From the IMG/VR virus record IMGVR_UViG_3300027785_002095: a DNA stretch of 64,000 nucleotides, one strand, 5' to 3'. Made by a program: the position numbers and the translations under genes. The notes beneath the pieces are model-generated. The model was not told where the DNA came from, did no database searches, and saw nothing but the letters and a program-made list of their open reading frames with translations. This document shows, one piece after another, positions 5,903 to 64,000 of this stretch. This DNA comes from a virus. Each line of letters starts with the position of its first letter. Positions within the stretch are counted from its first letter, which is position 1.

Positions 5903-7954
5903 ATGGGAATCAGAGCAAGTTCAGGCGGACAATTTAACAGTGGTGGCAGTGGATCTGGTGGTCCAGGTACTACACTGACTGTTGAGCAGGTACAGGACAT
6001 TTTGTCCGAAGCATTGTTGCCGGCAACTACAGTAGAAGGCTTATCACTTACATCAGTGTATGACGAAGTAACAGGTAAGATCACACTATCGCTAGGCACA
6101 CCACCAAGCGCACCAATCACAAACGTTGTTCCTGCCAGTATTGATGTTAAAAAACTTGGTGTGCCAGTTGGCGCTGCAAAGACCCTTAACTTTGCCGGTT
6201 CCGGTCTCGGTGCAGTAACCGTTGCTGATGGCGTAGTTACTATCAATGTGATTGGTGGTGATGGTACTGGTACTGGTAGCGGTGTTGGTATATCTGGTGC
6301 AGTTATTAACGCAAGTGGCAATTTGGTAATTGCGTTAACTGACGGATCTGTTATTGACACAGGCCGTGTTGTTGGTACAAATGGCGCACAAGGTGCCGCA
6401 GGCACAAATGGCGTTAGTGTTTCAACTGCTACTGTTAACCAATCTGGTCAACTTATTATTACAATGTCAACTGGTCAGCAAATCAATGCTGGTACTGTAG
6501 TTGGCGCACAAGGACCATTTGGTCCACAAGGTGCAGTAGGTCCGCAGGGCCAAGTTGGTGCTACAGGTGCAACTGGTGTAGCGGGTCCACAGGGTGTTCA
6601 AGGCCCAGCTGGTCGTAGTGTTGCCAGTAATGGAGCAACAATTGACTCCAATGGCAACTTACAAATTACACTGAGTGACGGTACAATTTTAAATGCAGGT
6701 CGTGCTGTTGGTGCGCAAGGCGCACAAGGTGTAGCAGGGCCAGTAGGTCCACAGGGCTTACAAGGATTAGCAGGGGCAACTGGCGCACAGGGTGCAGCTG
6801 GATCAAAAGGTGATACAGGCGCTGATAGTACTGTTCCTGGTCCAGCTGGTTTAACAGGTCCAGCAGGTGCAGTTGGTCCACAGGGACCAGCAGGAGCAGA
6901 TAGTACTGTTCAAGGCCCACAGGGTGTAGCTGGTCCACAAGGCATTCAGGGTGTAGCTGGTCCAATTGGCCCACAAGGTTTACCAGGTGTTGCAGGACCT
7001 GCAGGTACAAGTTACAGCATCAATGGCATTGCTGACGAAGTGCAAGTGTACGGTTTAAGTTCTACTACACAACCTGGTTACGATTTAGAAGTCGACGTTG
7101 CTAACCGTGCAAACAAATTAACAACTGCCCGCAATATTACTTTAAGTGGTAAAGTAACTGGCTTAACAAGTTTTGACGGCAGTGGTAATGTTAACATGAT
7201 AACTTCTTTAAGCGGTGTAACAACCAGCGATGTAGCAGAAGGCACAAACAAGTATTTCACTGATGCCAAGGCACGTGCCGCATTAAGTGCAAGTACAGGT
7301 CTTAGCTACAACAGTGCGACTGGTGTTATGGCATTAAACGCCAACAGTGATCAAATCACTGAAGGTTCCAACAACTTATACTTTACCAACAACAGATTTG
7401 ATAATCGTCTTGGTCAAAGTACATTGGCACAGTTTTCCGACGTTGCCAACACTAGCCCAACAACAGGTCAATCACTTGTATGGAACGGCAGTGCATGGGC
7501 TCCAAGCACTGTAAGCGGTGGTGGTTCTGGTGGTACAGGCGTAGGCGGTTCAGGTGTATTCAAAGCAACAGCACAAATTGAATATGATGCAAACGGTAAC
7601 CTTACCAACGTGAGTATTCTTAACGGTGGCATTAGTGCAGTTGTTACGACTGCTACAAGTACTACTGCCACAGTAACATTCACATTTACAGGCAGCACAT
7701 GCACACCACTTGGTATTCAAGTGTATGGTTATCAACGTGCTAACAACGTGTATGTTACTCGTGCGTTGGCCAGTGACTTCCCTACAAGAACTATTGCTGC
7801 TGGTGGAGCAAGCGGAGCCCCTGCTGCATTCAATGCGTTTGATGCAAGTACAAACACCATGACTATCAGCTTGACAAAGGCTGTTACAGGTGCTAATGCT
7901 GCAATTGGTCAGACAACACATTGCGTATTGCAATTCTTACTAAGCTCTATCTAA
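5903..7954 (+). CDS. tail fibre-like protein with collagen-like Gly-X-Y repeats
   Basis: aa ~155-370 hold runs such as GPQGAVGPQGQVGATGATGVAGPQGVQGPAG alternating with three beta-rich modules (ISGAVINASGNLVIALTDGSVIDTGRVV / VSTATVNQSGQLIITMSTGQQINAGTVV / SNGATIDSNGNLQITLSDGTILNAGRAV); EGTNKYFTDAKARAAL and EGSNNLYFTNNRFDNRLG motifs. Confidence 0.7.
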   Translation: MGIRASSGGQFNSGGSGSGGPGTTLTVEQVQDILSEALLPATTVEGLSLTSVYDEVTGKITLSLGTPPSAPITNVVPASIDVKKLGVPVGAAKTLNFAGSGLGAVTVADGVVTINVIGGDGTGTGSGVGISGAVINASGNLVIALTDGSVIDTGRVVGTNGAQGAAGTNGVSVSTATVNQSGQLIITMSTGQQINAGTVVGAQGPFGPQGAVGPQGQVGATGATGVAGPQGVQGPAGRSVASNGATIDSNGNLQITLSDGTILNAGRAVGAQGAQGVAGPVGPQGLQGLAGATGAQGAAGSKGDTGADSTVPGPAGLTGPAGAVGPQGPAGADSTVQGPQGVAGPQGIQGVAGPIGPQGLPGVAGPAGTSYSINGIADEVQVYGLSSTTQPGYDLEVDVANRANKLTTARNITLSGKVTGLTSFDGSGNVNMITSLSGVTTSDVAEGTNKYFTDAKARAALSASTGLSYNSATGVMALNANSDQITEGSNNLYFTNNRFDNRLGQSTLAQFSDVANTSPTTGQSLVWNGSAWAPSTVSGGGSGGTGVGGSGVFKATAQIEYDANGNLTNVSILNGGISAVVTTATSTTATVTFTFTGSTCTPLGIQVYGYQRANNVYVTRALASDFPTRTIAAGGASGAPAAFNAFDASTNTMTISLTKAVTGANAAIGQTTHCVLQFLLSSI

Positions 7955-21263: not shown

Positions 21264-21290
21264 AAAACAGGTCCATTGGACCTGTTTTTA
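21264..21290 (+). terminator. intrinsic terminator AAAACAGGTCC-ATT-GGACCTGTTTT + T-run
   Basis: perfect 11-bp stem, 3-nt loop, TTTTTAT; directly after the dioxygenase stop. Confidence 0.65.
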
Positions 21291-21294
21291 TGAC

Positions 21295-21323
21295 TTGACA
21301 AACACTTTAAAAGGTGTTATACT
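21295..21323 (+). promoter_or_regulatory. promoter TTGACA-N17-TATACT with dyad AACAC/GTGTT in the spacer
   Basis: read directly; 31 nt upstream of the ATG at 21355. Confidence 0.5.
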
Positions 21324-21885: not shown

Positions 21886-22191
21886 ATGATGACAAAGATT
21901 AAACTACTCGTTGCAGCCATAATGGTCGTGATATTAAGTGGATGTGCAACTCGAACAGGTACTGCTATTGTGGCAGGTACTGCTGGTATGGTCATTGGTA
22001 CAGCAATGTCACAACCAAGAACAGTTGTGGTGCGTGAAGTCCAAGAACAAGTTATTATTGTTAATGACGTGTGTAACCATTATTCATTATACAGTCAACG
22101 TGCCGCTTGTGAACGTGGTTCACGTCAACGTTATTATGAAGAACAGCGGCGTCGAGATAATGAAGCATATAGATCTGGTTATGGCAGGTAA
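21886..22191 (+). CDS. small lipoprotein
   Basis: MMTKIKLLVAAIMVVILSGC lipobox; GAGGAA RBS (track ORF starts upstream at a GTG). Confidence 0.55.
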   Translation: MMTKIKLLVAAIMVVILSGCATRTGTAIVAGTAGMVIGTAMSQPRTVVVREVQEQVIIVNDVCNHYSLYSQRAACERGSRQRYYEEQRRRDNEAYRSGYGR

Positions 22192-22240
22192 TAATATATA
22201 ATATATTAAAATAATATATAATATAATATAATAATATGGC
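22189..22240. repeat. AT-only low-complexity tract (TAATATA / AATATATAATAT units)
   Basis: about 50 nt without G or C between the lipoprotein stop and the next promoter. Confidence 0.5.
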
Positions 22241-22303
22241 CTAAATGTTGCTAAAATACAACGAAAATAGTCCAGAAATCTGGCTCAAACTCACTAAAAA
22301 CGG

Positions 22304-22332
22304 TTGACTTCTGGACCAGATTGCAGTATAAT
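22304..22332 (+). promoter_or_regulatory. promoter TTGACT-N17-TATAAT with palindrome TCTGGACCAGA in the spacer
   Basis: aligns over ~45 nt with the promoter at 30630; -10 ends 6 nt before the ATG at 22339 (leaderless transcript predicted). Confidence 0.5.
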
Positions 22333-22338
22333 AAACAC

Positions 22339-22671
22339 ATGAACTGCAAAAACACTCCAACACAACGCAAGCGCCGTACAGATCGTAACCATGCGATTTA
22401 CGAACTGTTTTGCGAAGTGACTGGCGAAAGCTACATTGGTATCACTGTGGTTGATGGTACTGCATTGGGTTCTGTGCGTGGACGTTTTAACCGTCACCTT
22501 AGCCGTGCTAATACTGAAAGCAAGAACTGGAACCTGTGTACTGCACTTCGTACACACGGACGCGAAGGGTTCACTCCTTACTTGCTGGAAGTAGTGCGTG
22601 GCAAGACAGCGGCTCACGCTCGTGAACGCGAATTGATTGCAGTTATGCAACCTGCTCTTAACACTCTTTAA
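22339..22671 (+). CDS. GIY-YIG nuclease-domain protein
   Basis: AIYELFCEVTGESYIGIT (GIY-x10-YIG), later RGRFNRHLS and RERE. Confidence 0.55.
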   Translation: MNCKNTPTQRKRRTDRNHAIYELFCEVTGESYIGITVVDGTALGSVRGRFNRHLSRANTESKNWNLCTALRTHGREGFTPYLLEVVRGKTAAHARERELIAVMQPALNTL

Positions 22672-23498: not shown

Positions 23499-23814
23499 CT
23501 TGGACCTTTCCAAGTTAGCCAGTTTCCATTTGACAGATAGTTGTCCCAAGTACTATAATTAAAACAAGTGCAAGTTTTGTAGTACTTGAATGTTCCTGCT
23601 ACTTACTACTCATTTTTCGGACTAAGTTGTATAACATTTAACAATCTTTGTAAATTACATCGTAACTTCATTGGTTAATTTTACGTTATAATTGTTGTAA
23701 GCGTTAGCTGAAGTACTGCTAGCGTGACACGTACTTACAACTGAAGTTTAGTGTAATACAACAGCCGGAACAATTATGTAGAATACCACAGTAAGTATTA
23801 ACGGGAGACAAACT

Positions 23815-24504
23815 ATGAAACGAACAATTTATTTTGATACATTACAAACGCAATTAAGCGTAGACGCTAAAATTGCAATCAGCGACATTACCAGTAGTAC
23901 CATTGATGTAGTAGATTCTTGGCCAGGTCTTATGAGCCTGCTTTGTCAAGAACTCTGCCACAATGACAGTGTTGATCAGGATATTACTTTGGTGATATTC
24001 AACAAAGATTCACTTGCATTTCCCGGAACAACACTAAACGAAATAGTAGACGCAATTCGCACTATTTCTACCATATCCGGACCAAAGAAAGTAAGAATAG
24101 GAATTTTAATAAATGATAAATGTGAACAAAAGTTTGTTCAGCATTTAAAGAAAAGCAACATAAGCGGCATTGTACCAAATTTTAAAACGTTTGGGGATGC
24201 CGATTTCTTTGACGGCTTAAACACTTTATTGTCGGGTACTACACACTGGCCCGACGCATACATTGTTCAACGAATCAAATCATCTACTAGATCCACAGTG
24301 GAATACGGAATTCGGTTGACTGCACGACAACGTGAAATTATGACACTGGTAGCAAATCGAGGACTCAGCAATAAAAAGATTGCTCAAGTATTAAACATCA
24401 GTGAAAGTACTGTCAAGGTACATATCAGTTCTATTTTAAAAGCATACGGAGTCCGAAACAGAACTCAGCTGGCTCTGGCCGGTAACAAAGGGCTACACGC
24501 ATAA
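23815..24504 (+). CDS. LuxR-family transcriptional regulator (C-terminal HTH, atypical N-terminal domain)
   Basis: LTARQREIMTLVANRGLSNKKIAQVLNISESTVKVHISSILKAYGVRNRTQLA; N-domain lacks receiver Asp pocket. Confidence 0.7.
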   Translation: MKRTIYFDTLQTQLSVDAKIAISDITSSTIDVVDSWPGLMSLLCQELCHNDSVDQDITLVIFNKDSLAFPGTTLNEIVDAIRTISTISGPKKVRIGILINDKCEQKFVQHLKKSNISGIVPNFKTFGDADFFDGLNTLLSGTTHWPDAYIVQRIKSSTRSTVEYGIRLTARQREIMTLVANRGLSNKKIAQVLNISESTVKVHISSILKAYGVRNRTQLALAGNKGLHA

Positions 24505-24521: not shown

Positions 24522-24548
24522 ATATCCCCTTCATGGGGATATTTTTTT
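24522..24548 (+). terminator. intrinsic terminator ATATCCCC-ttcat-GGGGATAT + T6
   Basis: read directly after the LuxR stop. Confidence 0.75.
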
Positions 24549-24701
24549 GACTGTAGTACTGACGCACAGTATAGTACTTTTGCCTTTGAATAATCAGCAC
24601 CTGTGCCTTTAACTAATATTGTACTGTGGCAAAATTGATTTTGTTGCAGTCAGATCCTAGGCAAACATACAGCCTAGAATTTTACTTTAAAGGAAAATAA
24701 A

Positions 24702-30571: not shown

Positions 30572-30596
30572 TGTTGTAAAAATACAACACTTTTTT
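30572..30596 (+). terminator. intrinsic terminator TGTTGTA-aaaa-TACAACA + T6
   Basis: read directly. Confidence 0.6.
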
Positions 30597-30629
30597 ACCA
30601 CTTTTTTGAAGATTTTTGCCAGAAAAAGG

Positions 30630-30658
30630 TTGACGTCCTGGTCCAGATGCGCTATAAT
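30630..30658 (+). promoter_or_regulatory. promoter TTGACG-N17-TATAAT with palindrome CTGGTCCAG in the spacer
   Basis: near-identical to promoter at 22304 (aaaa-gGTTGAC-tcCTGGwCCAGAt-gc-TATAATAAACACAT); CAGGAG RBS and ATG 30691 follow. Confidence 0.5.
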
Positions 30659-30690
30659 AAACACATAGACAGCAACAAACAGGAGTTTAA

Positions 30691-30978
30691 ATGAGCAAAC
30701 AAGATCATACTGTGTACATTTATAAAGCAGACAAGCGCACCAAAGCAGGCGAGCGACTTGTTAGCACTACTGTTTGGCGCAATCGTGATGCGGCTGAAAT
30801 GAAGCGTGAAGTTCGCGAACTGCAATACGAACTGTGGCCCGTTAGCAAAGGCTTCCGCATCGAATTCTTCCCTACAATGAAAACTGTAAAGAATTTGATG
30901 ACTGGCAAAGACATTCAAATTGATCGTGACACTCCTTGGAGTTGCAACCCAGCTTCCGAATCTTACTGGAGCATGTGA
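30691..30978 (+). CDS. hypothetical protein
   Basis: 95 aa. Confidence 0.5.
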   Translation: MSKQDHTVYIYKADKRTKAGERLVSTTVWRNRDAAEMKREVRELQYELWPVSKGFRIEFFPTMKTVKNLMTGKDIQIDRDTPWSCNPASESYWSM

Positions 30979-31213: not shown

Positions 31214-31386
31214 TACGAATAATTTTCTTTTGGTTGGTCCTTTTTGCCTTGTTCTTTTTTGGCATAAAATTTCTTAGAAGTTTGTCCGGAAGCGAGGCTT
31301 GGGCATTGACAAAGCTAGCATCTTATGCTATACTATGTTCACTGCTAACAACAGCATTTTTGGTTCTTATTGTAATTCTTTTTTAA
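31210..31386 (+). CDS. small two-TM membrane protein (58 aa), holin-like
   Basis: MIRIIFFWLVLFALFFFGIKFLRSLSGSEAWALTKLASYAILCSLLTTAFLVLIVILF; ATGA overlap with upstream stop. Confidence 0.35.
   Translation: MIRIIFFWLVLFALFFFGIKFLRSLSGSEAWALTKLASYAILCSLLTTAFLVLIVILF
31306..31334 (+). promoter_or_regulatory. promoter TTGACA-N17-TATACT (dyad AGCAT/ATGCT in spacer) inside the small membrane ORF
   Basis: read directly; 61 nt upstream of the band-7 gene ATG. Confidence 0.45.
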
Positions 31387-33144: not shown

Positions 33145-33345
33145 ATGGCAGATATTATTGACGACGCACAAGAAGCAATGGAAGCGCAAGAAGAAATGCG
33201 CAAAGCATTAGCAAAAGAGTTTGTACCAATTCGCACTGGCTTTTGCCTCGAGTGTGAAGAACCAACAGAGTTCACGTTCTGTTGCGTAGATTGTAGGGAC
33301 TCCCACGAAAAGCGTGAGAAGATGAAATCCATCAACGGAAAGTAA
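33145..33345 (+). CDS. DksA/TraR-type C4 zinc-finger protein
   Basis: C-x2-C-x17-C-x2-C (CLECEEPTEFTFCCVDC). Confidence 0.55.
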   Translation: MADIIDDAQEAMEAQEEMRKALAKEFVPIRTGFCLECEEPTEFTFCCVDCRDSHEKREKMKSINGK

Positions 33346-38573: not shown

Positions 38574-38678
38574 GATCTTGTGCATAGATCTTGCTTGTAT
38601 GTTATATACTCTGGCGATTCAGAGTCTAAGGGCATAGCCCAGAGGAGCGTGAAATTTAACATTTCGCGAACTTATATT

Positions 38679-39422
38679 ATGTTTGAAAGAATTAAACTAC
38701 ACAGATACATTGCAGTATGTGCCGTTGCTTTTTATGGCAGCATGGCACTGGCACAAGTAACAACGCCCACTGGCGCAAATAGTGTTTACATTGAGCAAAT
38801 TGGTAACAGCAACAATATTTTAATTGAGCAAGTTGGCAATGCAAACAACATTGGCGGAACAGCAAATGCTACACCCAGCAGTTCCAACTATGGCACAATC
38901 ACTGGCAACACCAACACACTTACATTACGTCAAACTGGCGACGGCAATTTGAGTCAGTACAATATCAAAGGCACAGACAACATTTATTCATTGGTTATGA
39001 CCGGCAGTGGAAACAAGACAAAGTTAGATGCTGGCGATGCTAATACAAACAATCTGCGCAATTCAATAACCGAAACCATCATTGGTGATACTAACACTGT
39101 TACACAAACATTAGTGGGTAATGATATTACAAGTACATTGGCAATTACAGGAAATACAAACATTGTTAATAAAGAGATAAAGAGCAGCAATGCATCAAGT
39201 ACTGTGACAATTATGGGTGGAAACAATACACTTGACATTCAACAAGTGGACATTTCAGGCGCACGTGGACATTTGTTAACTCAAACAGTTGCTGGAGACT
39301 TTAATACTATTACTACTCAACAGCAAGGTACAATCGACACCACTGTTAATATTTCCACTGCTGGCAATTCAAATCAAATTGTTGTTAGAACAAGTAGCTC
39401 GGCTATCGTCAATCCTCGTTAA
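38679..39422 (+). CDS. secreted curlin-repeat protein (CsgA/CsgB-like)
   Basis: signal peptide MFERIKLHRYIAVCAVAFYGSMALAQV; about 9 imperfect repeats N-x-x-x-I-x-Q-x-G-N (NSVYIEQIGNSNN, ILIEQVGNANN, NTLTLRQTGDGN, NIYSLVMTGSGN, NTVTQTLVGNDI, NTLDIQQVDISG...); track ORF starts upstream at 38580. Confidence 0.6.
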   Translation: MFERIKLHRYIAVCAVAFYGSMALAQVTTPTGANSVYIEQIGNSNNILIEQVGNANNIGGTANATPSSSNYGTITGNTNTLTLRQTGDGNLSQYNIKGTDNIYSLVMTGSGNKTKLDAGDANTNNLRNSITETIIGDTNTVTQTLVGNDITSTLAITGNTNIVNKEIKSSNASSTVTIMGGNNTLDIQQVDISGARGHLLTQTVAGDFNTITTQQQGTIDTTVNISTAGNSNQIVVRTSSSAIVNPR

Positions 39423-44444: not shown

Positions 44445-45115
44445 ACTGTAAGTTGCCAATAACGTCATCTTTGAAGATTGGTCCTACTACAGCAGTCGTA
44501 AGTACTGCACAATAATCATGTGTAACAAAAGGTTAGCAGGCCAGTAAATATTCTGCCGGGTAAGCATCTAAGTGTGTGCCGATGCCCAATTCTGTGAGTA
44601 CACCACGGACTCGTATTCACTACCCGTCTTCGTACGGATGCCTTAAAACGGTGCCCCATTGTGGTTTCACGTTTGAATACTAGTATACAGGTTGAGTGCA
44701 GCGCAAGTTGACTTAGTTCCAATGCATCCATAACAACATATGACACCGAAGTTGTTTTAAAAATCGTAATAGGTCGGGTAAGGTACAGAGCCCAGAGATG
44801 CGGAAACCAAAACACCTATTGTCTCAGTGTGGCTGATCGTCTAAGCAAACATCTCATCCGGCATCCTTTACAGGGTGTCGTATGGCCACCCAATCTAGCA
44901 AAACTATTCATCTTAGTTCAAATTTTTCGTGTTAACCAAAACACAATACACAAATAATTAACCCGCAAAATTATGGAACTATTATACTTGCACCGTAAAA
45001 TTTTATGATGCCGCAAAAATATGGTTAACAGATGAACGTACACTATATAGGACTCTAAGGGTAACTACGAGTCGTTCTGGTCCAGACTTATTTGACTTGA
45101 CTTTCAGTCAAAAAT
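44445..45115. other. 670-bp non-coding island: mixed-GC structured core plus AT-rich promoter region with CCGCAAAA(T)TATGG direct repeat
   Basis: only a 99-aa antisense ORF; several short hairpins; CCGCAAAATTATGG and CCGCAAAAATATGG 46 nt apart; CTGGTCCAG palindrome and TTGACT-N17-TAAATT before the ATG at 45131. Confidence 0.35.
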
Positions 45116-47167
45116 GTGTTAAATTATAGTATGAAAAACTTTATTCCCGGTCCATTGAGTATTGCTTGGGTAGCAGTTACGGCTGTTATACTTGTGGCAT
45201 TAAAAATCTCTAACCCTGTGCCTGTTGAAAGCATTCAACTCAAAGGCTTTGATGCACTACTGTCAGTTGACACTCCTGTTGATTCTGATAGTGTTGTTAT
45301 AGTCGACATCGGCGAAGCCAGTATAGAACGCCAGGGACAGTGGCCGTGGCCTCGGCGAGACCTAGCTCGAGCAATTGAACAAATACAAGAACTGGGTGCT
45401 GCCGCAATTGTTGTTCCTGTTATTATGAGTGAAGCAGACCGTTTTGGCAGCGATCGAGATCTAGTTAAAGTACTTGGCCGCACCAACAGTGTTATTGCCC
45501 AAGCACCTACTACGCAAAACAAACGTCCTGACGCAGTTCGTCGTGGTGTTGCTGTTATAGGTGGTAATCCGTTAGAATGGGTGTACTCTTGGCCTGGCGC
45601 ACTAAGTCCTTACCGGCCATTGGCTAATGCAGCCGCTGGAGTAGGTACAACTGTTGTTGCTCCTGAAGTAGATGGTGTTGTTCGACGCATGCCACTTATT
45701 GTGGGCGTAGGCGAAGAAATTTATCCCAGCTTGCCATTAGAAGCACTTCGTGTTGTTACTGGACAACAAAGTTATCAAGTTAAAATGAGTTCAGCAGGAA
45801 TTGAAAAAGTTCGTATTGCTGGACAACCTGTTATCACCACAGACGAACGTGCCAGAATCTGGTTGCGTTGGAACAAGAACTTCACACGCTATGAACTATC
45901 TGAATTGGCCAATAAAAACGTAAATCTGCAGGGTAAAGTGGTAGTGTTAGGCTTGTCAGTAGAAGGCCTAGGTGGTATTATTGCTACACCGCGTGGTGAA
46001 GCCTGGGCACACGATATTCAAGCACAAACTGTACAAACATTGCTTGACGGTGATAGCCCTGTACGCCCTGCATTTGCCAATGCAATCGAATTGATAACAA
46101 TTGTGCTTATAGCGTTTCTACTAATTTTCGCGATGCCTAGATTGCCTTTTTGGGCAGTGGGCACAGCACTATTTGCAACCATTGGCAGTGTTGTGTGGGG
46201 TAGCTTTTTTGCGTGGAGCAACTATAGTCAACTATGGGACATTTACTCTTTAACGTTTGCAGCCATTGTACTGTATGGGCATGCACTATTTGCACGTTTC
46301 GTACAAGAGTTCAAGCAAAAGCAACAAATCAAGAAACAGTTTGGTACATACCTAAGCCCTGCACTGGTTGCTAAACTACAGAAGAATCCAGAGCTGTTAC
46401 AGCTAGGTGGCGACGAGCGCGAGTTAAGTATTATGTTCACTGACGTTCGTGGCTTTACTACAATCTCAGAACACTATGGTCGGGATGTACAAGGACTTAC
46501 CAAGATTATGAATCGTTACATGACTGCAATGACTCGCAAGATCATTGACAATAACGGCACATTAGACAAGTACATTGGTGATGCACAGATGGCATTTTGG
46601 AACGCACCAGTTGACGAAGCACGTCACGCACATATGGCTGTTAAGACAGCATTAGAAATGATGGAGAGTTTAGATGAATTTAATCGTGAAGTTACAGCAG
46701 AAGGTATACCAGCTTTTGGTATGGGTCTTGGGATTAATAGCGCAGTTGTTGTGGTCGGTAACATGGGATCTGATCAGCGTTTTGACTATACTTGTCTGGG
46801 CGATGGCGTCAATCTTGCGTCCCGCCTTGAGGGACAAAGTAAGCCTTATGGCGTTAGAATTGTACTGGGACAGCGAACTGCTGAATTGGTTCAGGACCAA
46901 TACCCGACGATAGAATTAGATTGCATTGCAGTTAAAGGTAAAACAGTTGGAGTAAGAATCTTTACATTAGGCACTACCAATATTACCCTGCATGACACAT
47001 ATTTGCAAGCATACTACCGTGGCGATTGGACTCGTGCTATTCGTCAATGTGAAAAGTTAATTGGTTTAGATAACGAACTAAAGCAGTATTACGAAAATAT
47101 GCTGGAACGTATGCGTGAAGGCTTGCCAGCTAATTGGGACGGCACATATAGAGCAACAAGTAAGTAA
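45116..47167 (+). CDS. CHASE2-sensor class III adenylate/guanylate cyclase
   Basis: N-terminal TM + extracytoplasmic CHASE2-like region (GQWPWPR), later TMs, cyclase core FTDVRGFTT...DKYIGDAQMAFWNAP...GINSAVVVVGNMGS...YTCLGDGVNLASRLEG. Confidence 0.75.
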   Translation: MLNYSMKNFIPGPLSIAWVAVTAVILVALKISNPVPVESIQLKGFDALLSVDTPVDSDSVVIVDIGEASIERQGQWPWPRRDLARAIEQIQELGAAAIVVPVIMSEADRFGSDRDLVKVLGRTNSVIAQAPTTQNKRPDAVRRGVAVIGGNPLEWVYSWPGALSPYRPLANAAAGVGTTVVAPEVDGVVRRMPLIVGVGEEIYPSLPLEALRVVTGQQSYQVKMSSAGIEKVRIAGQPVITTDERARIWLRWNKNFTRYELSELANKNVNLQGKVVVLGLSVEGLGGIIATPRGEAWAHDIQAQTVQTLLDGDSPVRPAFANAIELITIVLIAFLLIFAMPRLPFWAVGTALFATIGSVVWGSFFAWSNYSQLWDIYSLTFAAIVLYGHALFARFVQEFKQKQQIKKQFGTYLSPALVAKLQKNPELLQLGGDERELSIMFTDVRGFTTISEHYGRDVQGLTKIMNRYMTAMTRKIIDNNGTLDKYIGDAQMAFWNAPVDEARHAHMAVKTALEMMESLDEFNREVTAEGIPAFGMGLGINSAVVVVGNMGSDQRFDYTCLGDGVNLASRLEGQSKPYGVRIVLGQRTAELVQDQYPTIELDCIAVKGKTVGVRIFTLGTTNITLHDTYLQAYYRGDWTRAIRQCEKLIGLDNELKQYYENMLERMREGLPANWDGTYRATSK

Positions 47168-49976: not shown

Positions 49977-50019
49977 CTTGGCAATCCTTTATCTATGCTG
50001 CTATTTATTAAAATAGATC

Positions 50020-50038
50020 AAAAACAGGACCTGTTTTT
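50020..50038. promoter_or_regulatory. perfect palindrome AAAAACAGG-A-CCTGTTTTT in the divergent region
   Basis: read directly; 50 nt upstream of ATG 50089; could act as bidirectional terminator or operator. Confidence 0.35.
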
Positions 50039-50088
50039 GAAACGGTAAATAGAGCGAAGGTTATTGTGCAAAAACAATAAATATATCT

Positions 50089-62622: not shown

Positions 62623-64000
62623 AACGTGTAGCAATGATTGGATTAGGTAAGCTAGGCTTACCATGTGCCGAAGTAATGGCTGAACATTACGATGTGTGCG
62701 GATATGATATCAACACTGTAGACCCAACACTGACTGTAGCCATCAAAGGTTCCGTTGAAGAAGCTGTTAAAGGTGCTGACATTATTTTTGTTGCAGTACC
62801 TACTCCACACAATCCACAATACGGCGGAGAGACTCCGATCAGCAACATGACGCCATGTGACTTTGATTACACACCTGTTATCAAAGTTTTTCAACAAATC
62901 AATCCGCATGTGACACAAGATCAACTAGTTGTTTTAATCTCAACAGTGTTGCCCGGTACTGTACGTGATCAACTAATTGGTTACCTAACTAACGCACGTT
63001 TCATTTACAACCCATATCTTATTGCTATGGGATCTGTTAAGTGGGACATGGTTAATCCAGAGTGTCTTATCATTGGTACAGAAGATGGTAGTACAACAGG
63101 CGATGCACAAGAGCTAATTGAATTTTACAAGCCGCTAATGCAGAACGAACCCCGTGTTAACGTAGGCACATGGGACGAAGCCGAAGCTATTAAGATTTTT
63201 TACAACACATTCATCTCAGCCAAGATTGGTCTTGTCAACATGATTCAGGACGTAGCAGAAAAGAATGGCAACATCAACGTAGATGTGGTAACAGATGCGC
63301 TTAAAGCTGCCACACAGCGTATTACTGGGCCACGCTATTTGACAGCCGGCTTAGGTGACGCAGGTGCTTGCCATCCACGCGATAACATTGCTCTACGCTG
63401 GTTAAGCGGCAAGTTGGATTTAGGTTATGATATGTTCCATGCTATCATGAGTGCTCGCGACAGTCAAGCGCAGGCGATGGCAGGTAAATTAGTAAAACTT
63501 GCACAAGAAAACAACCTCCCGGTTGTGATTCACGGTAAAGCATACAAGCCATATGTTCCTTATACAATTGGCAGTTATAGTTTGTTGGTAGGGCACTTTG
63601 TTGAACATGCTGGTGTAGAGTTGTATTACGTAGATCCTCTCACTGGCGATGATACAGTTCCTGCTGGTCCAGCAGTTGTGCTAATGGCACACAATCCTGC
63701 TATCACGTATGCTGGGACCGGAGTTGAAGTAAAGGCAGATGAATTTTACTATGACATTGCCCCCGGTAGTATTCTTGTTGATCCGTGGCGCACAATTAAA
63801 GAGTTTCCAGGTTGCAAGGTAGTACACTATGGCAATCCCAAATTTAGTTTGCCAACTATCAATGGACGTATTTTAAATCCTGTAAACAAGTGCAACATCT
63901 TTGTTGAGTTGTATTCGCAGTTTAAATTTAGTTCTGACTTGGCCAAACCAATGACATATTTTGCATTGGCACCTGTAGAAGCAGTTAACAAAGATTTGGT
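62619..64000 (+). CDS. UDP-glucose/GDP-mannose 6-dehydrogenase family (runs off window end)
   Basis: MKRVAMIGLGKLGLP Rossmann start; active-site GLGDAGACHPRD (GGxCxxKD-like); ATGA overlap with the upstream stop; absent from ORF track because no stop in window. Confidence 0.65.
   Translation, partial: MKRVAMIGLGKLGLPCAEVMAEHYDVCGYDINTVDPTLTVAIKGSVEEAVKGADIIFVAVPTPHNPQYGGETPISNMTPCDFDYTPVIKVFQQINPHVTQDQLVVLISTVLPGTVRDQLIGYLTNARFIYNPYLIAMGSVKWDMVNPECLIIGTEDGSTTGDAQELIEFYKPLMQNEPRVNVGTWDEAEAIKIFYNTFISAKIGLVNMIQDVAEKNGNINVDVVTDALKAATQRITGPRYLTAGLGDAGACHPRDNIALRWLSGKLDLGYDMFHAIMSARDSQAQAMAGKLVKLAQENNLPVVIHGKAYKPYVPYTIGSYSLLVGHFVEHAGVELYYVDPLTGDDTVPAGPAVVLMAHNPAITYAGTGVEVKADEFYYDIAPGSILVDPWRTIKEFPGCKVVHYGNPKFSLPTINGRILNPVNKCNIFVELYSQFKFSSDLAKPMTYFALAPVEAVNKDL

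Follow-up and report, generated by a model that had tools for sequence, protein, structure and literature searches.

The stretch analyzed here, hereafter the window, comprises 64,000 nt of the IMG/VR record IMGVR_UViG_3300027785_002095, and all coordinates are window positions. Our subject is a pair of related promoters within it, P1 and P2, which carry the short palindrome CTGGWCCAG between their -35 and -10 hexamers. The window is a gene-dense part of a large phage with nearly all genes on the + strand, and its open reading frames (ORFs) leave ~7% of the DNA uncovered. Identified genes encode tail fibers, a ClpA-like ATPase, an endolysin, a CHASE2-cyclase, a papain-like protease, a LuxR/GerE-type helix-turn-helix (HTH) protein and a DksA-like zinc finger. 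P1 precedes a gene with a GIY-YIG nuclease domain and P2 a unit that begins with a small gene; Shine-Dalgarno sequences are abbreviated SD. The features of the two loci are:

22247 to 22262, + strand: distal dyad box of P1, GTTGCTAAAATACAAC, with 1 mismatch to GTTGYAAAAWWACAAC
22263 to 22303, + strand: phased units of P1, each a G+C block with an A-tract, ending in AAAAACGG and including TCTGGCTCAAA at 22279-22289
22304 to 22309, + strand: -35 hexamer of P1, TTGACT, with CGG before it
22310 to 22320, no strand: spacer palindrome of P1, TCTGGACCAGA, core GGACC, a sub-lineage form of the class-wide GGNCC block
22327 to 22332, + strand: -10 hexamer of P1, TATAAT
22339 to 22671, + strand: ORF of 110 amino acids (aa) with a GIY-YIG nuclease domain (Pfam GIY-YIG, E = 6e-6)
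30573 to 30588, + strand: distal dyad box of P2, GTTGTAAAAATACAAC, with 0 mismatches to GTTGYAAAAWWACAAC
30589 to 30629, + strand: phased T- and A-tracts of P2, ending in GAAAAAGG
30630 to 30635, + strand: -35 hexamer of P2, TTGACG
30638 to 30647, no strand: spacer palindrome of P2, CTGGTCCAG(A), read as CTGGTCCAGA
30653 to 30658, + strand: -10 hexamer of P2, TATAAT, with a predicted start at A30665
30681 to 30685, + strand: SD within the conserved leader of P2, ACATAGACAGCAACAAACAGGAG
30691 to 30978, + strand: first gene of the P2 unit, 95 aa, without a family match

P1 reads TTGACT-17-TATAAT (22304-22332) and P2 reads TTGACG-17-TATAAT (30630-30658). Each matches the consensus at 11/12 positions and both rank among the best sigma70-type matches on the + strand between 20 and 40 kb; judged by hexamers and spacer length, both are sigma70-type promoters. 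This agrees with an earlier note on this DNA, which had described a -35/17-nt/-10 geometry with CTGGWCCAG inside the spacer of each. The same note had the two promoters aligning almost base for base. They are indeed related, and AAACACAT follows both, but one indel pair is needed, the palindrome lying 1 nt farther from the -35 hexamer in P2 than in P1 and the remainder of the spacer being 1 nt shorter. Because of this register shift, a search with the whole 38-nt promoter in fixed register, allowing 3 mismatches, found nothing. A dyad box of the form GTTGY-A-rich-ACAAC lies exactly 57 bp before the -35 hexamer in both P1 and P2, and the window has no other good match to the box. The stretch between box and promoter holds phased A- or T-tracts, and a conserved start region and leader lie downstream, so that the duplicated unit measures ~110 bp (distal box, phased tracts, promoter, leader) and not the 45 nt given previously. 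Within P1, TCTGGACCAGA has the unit TCTGGCTCAAA exactly 31 bp ahead of it. After the upstream ORF, and before the P1 cassette begins, lies a 48-nt tract of A and T only (22190-22237), with period-5 ATATA and a period-20 repeat.

Isolate phages were compared using megablast and blastn with the region and the cassette, and tblastn with the GIY-YIG and 95-aa proteins. Among the 50,697 phage records searched there was no DNA match, no related cassette and, by tblastn, no close relative of either protein. The best protein relatives were those of the ClpA-like ATPase, which is ~42% identical to its counterparts in the jumbo phages Atu_ph07, Phosso and PA5oct. In IMG/VR the GIY-YIG protein is encoded at 69 loci (65-97% identity, contigs up to 285 kb), and the nearer relatives are syntenic with the part of the window between 10 and 37 kb, at 75-88% nucleotide identity. 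By these comparisons the source phage is not T4-type and is a member of an uncultured jumbo-phage clade. Labels such as L001 and L040 denote database stretches compared with the window. Orthologs of P1 were sampled through similarity of the GIY-YIG protein, blind to the palindrome, which gave 65 distinct upstream regions. All of those sampled keep the hexamers and the 17-nt spacer, TTGAC being present in 64/65 (the exception, L041, has TCGAC); the sequence of the spacer is variable.

Counting GG-TTGAC-N18-TATAAT sites across the window and related loci gave a census of 70-74 cassettes, the hexamers of the 70 class I cassettes being invariant by construction of the census. In this class A-tracts are centered near -5, -16, -28 and -38 relative to the -35 hexamer, AAAACGG stands before TTGAC, and TATAAT is followed by AnAyAC-A-T(A/G)aACAGCAAAAAGGAG. 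The cassettes come from uncultured jumbo-phage contigs, where related ones number in the hundreds: AAACGGTTGAC-N18-TATAATA occurs in IMG/VR in more than 120 stretches among the matches listed, on contigs up to 349 kb. The core promoter can be identical at 27/29 positions before unrelated genes (L005-type; L221, L224, L237). In relatives the distal box lies 18/19, 28, 39/40, 49/50, 59/60, 70 or 80/81 bp from the -35 hexamer, a phasing with a period of 10.3 bp (Rayleigh R = 0.76, n = 68, p ~1e-17; p ~3e-4 on the 29 distinct values only). Relative to the promoter the box therefore keeps to the same helical face, through gain or loss of whole ~10.5-bp units, and it is its primary sequence that is conserved rather than its pairing.

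The spacer itself follows the same rhythm. GGNCC is present in 41/64 distinct spacers of the lineage, compared with 3.4 expected from 2000 composition-preserving shuffles of these spacers (maximum 10), and mostly starts 4 nt after the hexamer. It is the commonest gapped 4-mer of the spacers (41, with the runner-up at 17) and is also found in 24/37 of them when GIY-YIG orthologs are left out. The information profile gives 0.51 and 0.65 bits for GG, 0.15 for the middle base and 0.57 and 0.80 for CC, with weak flanks; such a profile is that of selection on a gapped dyad and not of uniform decay. The mean G+C content of 73 cassettes peaks at -64, -53.5, -43, -33, -21.5, -11, -2, +11 and +20.5 relative to the -35 hexamer, with a periodogram maximum at 10.5 bp. 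As the +11 peak is the GGNCC block, the block forms one beat of a rhythm of G+C blocks and A-tracts that runs from the distal box to the -10 hexamer, and the upstream units (GGCCCAAAA, GGCTCAAAA) look like it.

These data bear on whether the block could be an inherited remnant, the cassettes having been duplicated from one ancestral promoter and the palindrome or GGNCC having no function of its own. The cassettes have clearly been copied and recombined, and spacers are the fastest-evolving part between the hexamers, as a remnant would have it. Neutral decay, however, would not keep GG and CC while freeing the middle base and the flanks, would not retain the block while it slides by 1-2 nt, and would not phase it with a 10.5-bp rhythm. 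In addition, sister lineages keep different, equally uniform spacers in non-orthologous promoters with differing flanks. We consider this explanation improbable.

CTGGWCCAG occurs five times in the window compared with 0.32 expected, and 0/100 shuffles reached five, so that the enrichment suspected earlier is real. Two of the copies are coding, at 6837 in Gly-Pro codons of a collagen-like tail fiber and at 63664 in Gly-Pro codons of an ORF open to the window end. The other three lie within the small part of the window without ORFs: those of P1 and P2, and one beside the promoter of the cyclase gene, where the palindrome had been reported to recur at ~45074:

45076 to 45086, no strand: stand-alone TCTGGTCCAGA (the 45077 site), 10 nt upstream of the -35 hexamer of the cyclase promoter
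45097 to 45133, + strand: cyclase promoter, TTGACT-17-(TGt)TAAATT, followed after 5 nt by ATG 45131

Homology of the flanks of the 45077 site to the cassette was considered and rejected by eye, with 4/15 upstream positions matching. The looser pattern TCTGG-N(0-30)-CCAGA gave 4 matches against 0.96 expected, but two of these are the palindromes themselves and the remaining two are therefore at chance level, which leaves the wider set of related repeats proposed before unsupported. Of those repeats, the one placed at 22263-22275 is actually CCAGAAATCTGG at 22272-22283, which spans two phased A-tract units and which relatives do not preserve as an inverted repeat. The other, placed at ~38612-38648 before a curlin gene, is a chance match of CTCTGG (38609-38614) and CCAGAG (38639-38644) separated by N24 rather than N26, and it folds otherwise, CTCTGG pairing with a nearer CAGAG. 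Nor was TATAATAAACACAT enriched in the window when 3 mismatches were allowed (19 vs 14.7). The ORF at 38679-39422 encodes a signal peptide and curlin-like repeats such as IEQIGNSNNILIEQVGNANN, with no Pfam or PHROG model matching at E <= 0.01; its start is probably ATG 38679 and not the listed GTG 38580.

GGWCC is the invariant core of all three noncoding sites, and an AvaII-type target of restriction-modification or of a methyltransferase would have such a core. We rejected this reading: the 60 GGWCC sites in the 64 kb are mostly GGT-CCA (Gly-Pro) codons, neither avoided nor confined to promoters, and the class-wide element is GGNCC, not GGWCC. Mere chance as the source of the recurring 9-mer is excluded by the shuffles and by its recurrence in relatives, and the probability left to either of these two accounts is close to negligible.

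Folding was also examined, as the spacer dyad might be a terminating or attenuating stem-loop for upstream transcripts, making the cassette a composite of terminator and promoter. In the promoter-early stem-loops (PeSLs) of phages phi1/RB49, discussed below, a stem-loop with a G-run/C-run dyad mostly occupies the same position between -35 and -10 (PMC2839356). At P2 the distal box is able to fold into a 7-bp A/U-rich hairpin (-5.7 kcal/mol) with CUUUUUU after it, but its z-score of -0.85 is not distinctive, and pairing in the P1 box is limited to 4 bp, with an A-run behind it, as in most P1 orthologs; it is again the primary sequence of the box that is conserved, not its pairing. The palindrome is absent from the minimum-free-energy folds (z-scores +0.2 and +1.2), and a 4-bp stem with a 1-3-nt loop would be unable to terminate transcription. 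A hairpin or terminator reading of the palindrome, as of the 38609 repeat, was rejected on the basis of folding, and a stem-loop role for the spacer dyad is very improbable.

Several other elements in the window have dyads. Terminator-like hairpins on the palindrome core lie at 21264-21288 and 50018-50040 (AAAACAGGTCC-ATT-GGACCTGTTTT and TCAAAAACAGGTCCTGTTTTTGA; CAGGWCCTG). The promoter at 21295-21323 (TTGACA-17-TATACT), before a 129-aa gene (phrog_27048), has an imperfect spacer dyad AACACT-N6-GGTGTT, which in relatives reads AGCACT/AGCACC-A6-GGTGCT with one apparently compensatory change; this longer dyad is nearer the PeSL stem-loop type. At 31306-31334, inside or at the end of a small ORF, is TTGACA-17-TATACT with TG before the -10 hexamer. 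Its spacer reads TAGCAT-CTT-ATGCTA in the window only, relatives keeping AAGNTNG...CTATGC.

Comparison of orthologous promoters showed how far the perfect palindrome extends. In P1 orthologs TCTGGWCCAGA is found only in the closest sub-clade; other spacers read AAAGTGGTCCAGAG, AGTGGACCTAAA, TCTGGCTCAAAG, CAGGCCCAATTT and similar, and in a more distant clade CTTGTTCTGAATTGATG. The spacer of L044 and L056 is TCTGGCTCAAAG, a direct repeat of the upstream unit TCTGGCTCAAA and not a palindrome. P2 orthologs read ATTTGGSCCNGGACCTG or ATTTGGCCCTGATGCRC, with no palindrome in L001, L003, L004, L010, L043 or L049; at this locus it is present only in the window, L007 and L226, the latter two having the form ATCTGGACCAGA. 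A near-identical spacer precedes a different gene in L244, and in the P2 ortholog of L001 CAGGACCTG adjoins the -10 hexamer. Orthologs of the 45077 site keep only GGTCC (GGACCGGGTCC, GATCCTGGTCC, GATCCAGGTCC, TTGTGGTCCAAC). L040 and L042 (98.9% identity across 7.9 kb) read TCTGGTCCAAA and TTTGGACCTAC, the perfect palindrome being lost in both, and the four changes inside the box are their sole differences across 330 nt of intergenic DNA. As a sign of hypervariability of the box this is not significant alone, as the changes fall in a 1.4-kb patch of 6% divergence with other clusters.

A scan of IMG/VR, metagenomes and genome contigs with TTGAC-N2-3-CTGGWCCAGA-N5-6-TATAAT recovered 13 IMG/VR and ~19 metagenome stretches that are cassettes of the clade, with at least 12 different genes downstream; the core promoter is identical in several of them. 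Neighboring cassettes on these contigs have TCTGGWCCAAG or unrelated spacers. From these comparisons the perfect palindrome is a sub-lineage variant of the spacer block, yet a preferred form. Outside the clade, three or four unrelated contexts matched besides one Bathyarchaeia coding gene, about the number expected by chance. All nine genome-contig matches are to that one gene (LTTGPEMFIIGH), a chance match, and an operator of host origin was rejected on this account; an Rfam scan of the Bathyarchaeia locus was empty. The look-alike (..LTTGPEMFIIGHALGVV..) is conserved coding sequence in L088-L096, L218, L219, L229-L235, L239, L242, L245, L247-L249 and L252, and would mislead pattern-only scans.

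The earlier note had proposed that the palindrome is a shared operator through which one regulator controls a subset of transcription units. Part of this stands. The promoters are related, the palindrome is non-random, the same palindrome promoter precedes at least 12 genes, and the site, symmetric and overlapping the contacts of RNA polymerase, is positioned where a bound protein would block the enzyme. The private subset does not: the palindrome marks both members of one cassette class, most lineage members having the GGNCC core only (41/64), and conservation of the arms fails at P1 orthologs outside the closest sub-clade and in L040 and L042 within it, at P2 orthologs and at orthologs of the 45077 site, all of which keep at most GGNCC. 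In a modified form, a dimeric protein encoded by the phage (less likely by the host) would bind (T)CTGGWCCAG(A) and occlude RNA polymerase, so that palindrome-bearing units are switched off, or on, together, the regulon being the cassette class of the sub-lineage. Three noncoding copies against ~0.02 expected, a central base (A or T) as the only varying position, as for a dyad site, and a place in the spacer typical of repressors argue for such an operator. So does the apparent origin of the palindrome at P2 in the window and in the L007 lineage, the orthologs being without it, and the four box changes between L040 and L042 could reflect selection on the site. Close relatives, on the other side, carry TCTGGWCCAAG or TTTGGACCTAC in the same promoters with hexamers still at consensus, the L044/L056 box repeats TCTGGCTCAAA directly, and the half-sites are only 4-5 bp with centers ~6 bp apart, tighter than is usual for HTH dimers. 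In the genome contigs scanned, the promoter-plus-palindrome pattern was found in no bacterial genome, the one archaeal coding gene being the sole match. An operator of this kind is possible, though we think it unlikely; should the palindrome prove to be bound by a protein, the switch that sets the timing of these genes would be identified with it.

The cognate regulator of such a site was not identified among the window ORFs profiled. Of the candidates named before, profile searches support the LuxR/GerE-type HTH protein (23815-24504) and the DksA-like zinc finger (33145-33345), whilst the 'AbrB-like' ORF had no match; no link of any of the three to the motif was found, and no DNA-binding domain came up in family searches of thirty further ORFs. 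Nearby, only the LuxR/GerE-type protein is clearly DNA-binding. Its homologs occur in many related loci but are absent within 10 kb at several GGNCC-bearing loci, a distribution uninformative as to whether it is the partner, and its own flanking promoters carry TAGTACT boxes. These promoters are TTGACA-18-TATAAT (23530, perfect), with a ~255-nt leader behind it that holds more GTACT repeats, and TTGACT-17-TATAGT (24547). Each has two TAGTACT boxes (23530-23815 and 24547-24700), the window total being 15 against 7.25 expected, and the boxes may serve the LuxR-type protein as a set of autoregulatory operators.

Within the wider promoter family, other lineages show uniform spacers of their own (CAAWAWTNCCCAWTTTG, AATAAATGGWTTTGGGT, TTYGTTCTNAAAYGATG). 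In sister lineages (L066-L070 and L073, e.g. L066 10341-11440; L123, L143, L159, L166, L187, L195, L200) near-invariant spacers recur in many non-orthologous promoters whose flanks differ; these spacers are TTYGTTCTNAAAYGATG, and CAAWAWTNCCCAWTTTG with a CAAAAT/ATTTTG dyad. A more speculative possibility, which we hold to be doubtful, is that each lineage of the clade has its own 'spacer code' (TCTGGWCCAGA here; CAAWAWTNCCCAWTTTG and TTYGTTCTNAAAYGATG elsewhere). A co-evolving, lineage-specific phage protein would read it jointly with a factor at the phased distal box (TGTTGY-N-ACAACA), and so permit, or at a later stage stop, transcription by host sigma70 polymerase from every early cassette. 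If true, this would be a spacer-reading layer of control not described for sigma70 promoters.

The explanation we favor, and regard as on balance probable, is that the spacer block is an architectural element of a curved, very strong and probably early promoter cassette, the palindrome being a sub-lineage form spread by cassette copying. P1 and P2 are in this view two copies of a modular cassette that a large uncultured jumbo-phage clade places before many small genes. The anatomy of the cassette is shown by the comparisons above: its 5' end is the dyad box TGTTGY-(A-rich)-ACAACA, held in helical phase with the promoter by a variable number of ~10.5-bp units of G+C block and A-tract; its core AAAACGG-TTGAC, a 17-nt spacer and TATAAT; and its 3' end the start region AnAyAC-A-T(A/G) with a short conserved leader containing AGGAG. 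Host sigma70-type RNA polymerase would read both hexamers, and the phased A-tracts would serve as curved upstream DNA in the manner of an UP element. Placed 3-5 nt after the -35 hexamer, GGNCC would then be an in-phase G+C beat selected as an element of promoter architecture, whether through DNA shape alone or also through protein docking. (T)CTGGWCCAG(A), at 9-11 bp, would be the form of the block in the sub-lineage of the window, spreading by copying and recombination. At P2 the cassette would give a leader of ~26 nt with an SD, whereas at P1 the leader would have turned coding.

Several observations weigh against this explanation. An exact 10-11-mer before at least 12 genes, in which nothing but the central base is free, fits a symmetric protein and is not required by DNA shape alone, and the stand-alone copy at 45076 belongs to no cassette. 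Without GIY-YIG orthologs the periodic signal is weaker (amplitude 0.056 vs 0.105), and the census is rich in orthologs of one promoter (35/73), with ascertainment partly based on the pattern. The timing and start sites of P1 and P2 are themselves predictions.

The cassette leader of P1 appears to have become part of its gene. The GIY-YIG ATG at 22339 begins 6 nt after the -10 hexamer, at the predicted transcription start, and has no SD; as the ATG is at the predicted +1, the GIY-YIG mRNA is probably leaderless. The layout of -10 hexamer, 6 nt and ATG is found in 65/65 distinct ortholog upstream regions (63 caught by a regular expression, the other two by eye). With a start predicted ~7 nt after the -10 hexamer, this invariant distance is indirect support for that prediction. 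Homology links the first five codons (ATGAACAGCAAAAAC) with the leader that stays untranslated in other cassettes (ATAGACAGCAAAAAGGAG), which suggests that the leaderless start evolved from a cassette leader by a change of ATA to ATG at +1. Further into the gene, the segment RKRRTDR is kept despite synonymous changes, and no other in-frame start precedes it, an in-frame TTG at 22321 not being conserved. A second candidate leaderless mRNA is that of the CHASE2-adenylate/guanylate cyclase, the ORF of which ends at 47167: it has no SD, the listed GTG at 45116 falls inside the promoter, the -10 of which is extended, and the promoter/ATG layout is identical in five relatives (L082-L086). The cI mRNA of lambda, transcribed from PRM, is a familiar leaderless message. 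The GIY-YIG ATG resembles it in standing at +1 without an SD, but here the leaderless start is predicted, derived from a cassette leader and fixed in 65/65 orthologs.

At P2, gene content changes between cassettes. Relatives carry one of two unrelated small genes, together with a second promoter of the same family, between the P2 ortholog and the ortholog of the 30691 gene. A gene starting MTEFESKCYG occupies this place in L001, L003, L004, L007, L043 and L049, and an MDMIEATK gene in L010, whilst the window has neither extra gene and one promoter only. The replacements, at 3525-3900 of L001 and 10487-10900 of L010, are orthologous to 30630-30700 of the window. L001 and L003 are also without 5-7.5 kb adjoining P2. 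The P2 locus is a case of gene replacement or loss bounded by promoter cassettes, with three states of gene content.

If the cassette explanation is right, mobile promoter cassettes, known only from T4-type phages, extend to a large and widespread uncultured jumbo-phage clade. To these it would add a short G+C dyad in the spacer that is selected though unable to form a terminator, and a distal dyad box that 10.5-bp units of curved DNA keep in register with the helix. For the annotation of metagenomic phages of this kind the cassettes would offer a sequence signature of probable early transcription units. They would also provide a conserved example of a nuclease gene whose leaderless start was built from a promoter's own leader, and compact promoters, probably very strong, in a natural series that differs in the spacer.

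Operators between the -35 and -10 hexamers are known from other systems, such as the Arc operator in Pant of P22 and the lacO and tetO sites of engineered promoters. Like these, the dyad described here lies in the spacer, where a bound protein would exclude polymerase. Operators of the Arc, lacO and tetO type are 17-21 bp, with half-sites about one helical turn apart, and are conserved together with a known repressor, whereas the present dyad is 9-11 bp, is not conserved in orthologs and is without an identified partner. The early promoters of T4 and P25/PN25 of T5 are strong promoters with A-tract or UP-like upstream regions and conservation beyond the hexamers. The cassettes resemble them in their consensus hexamers, A-rich phased upstream DNA and conserved start region, but we know of no GGNCC spacer block or distal dyad box in T4 early or T5 P25/PN25 promoters. 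A literature search on jumbo-phage early promoters and leaderless genes found nothing matching this motif.

The closest parallel is with PeSLs, which are described as mobile regulatory cassettes in the T4-type phages phi1/RB49, PST and nt-1 (Arbiol et al., 2010, PMC2839356; Comeau et al., 2014, PMC4122927). PeSLs have a near-consensus sigma70 promoter, rich in A/T on its upstream side, and finish with an SD and a start codon. They precede ORFans in hyperplastic regions, vary between phage pairs and mediate modular shuffling (PMC2839356, PMC4122927). The cassettes of the present clade share much of this description: they are numerous, short and intergenic, combine a near-consensus sigma70 promoter with A/T-rich upstream DNA, a G/C dyad, an SD and a start codon, and stand mostly before small genes of unidentified function in variable regions, with a lineage-specific signature. 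Genes are gained, lost and replaced between them, as at P2, in the manner reported for PeSLs. They differ in that the phage is not T4-type and belongs to a jumbo-phage clade, and in that the spacer dyad is too short to fold or terminate. Mini-circle formation is a further feature of PeSLs. The distal dyad box, kept in helical phase through 10.5-bp units of G+C block and A-tract, goes beyond what the consulted parts of PMC2839356 and PMC4122927 describe for PeSLs. On these grounds we take the cassettes to work like PeSLs, but as a distinct variant and not as members of the PeSL family.

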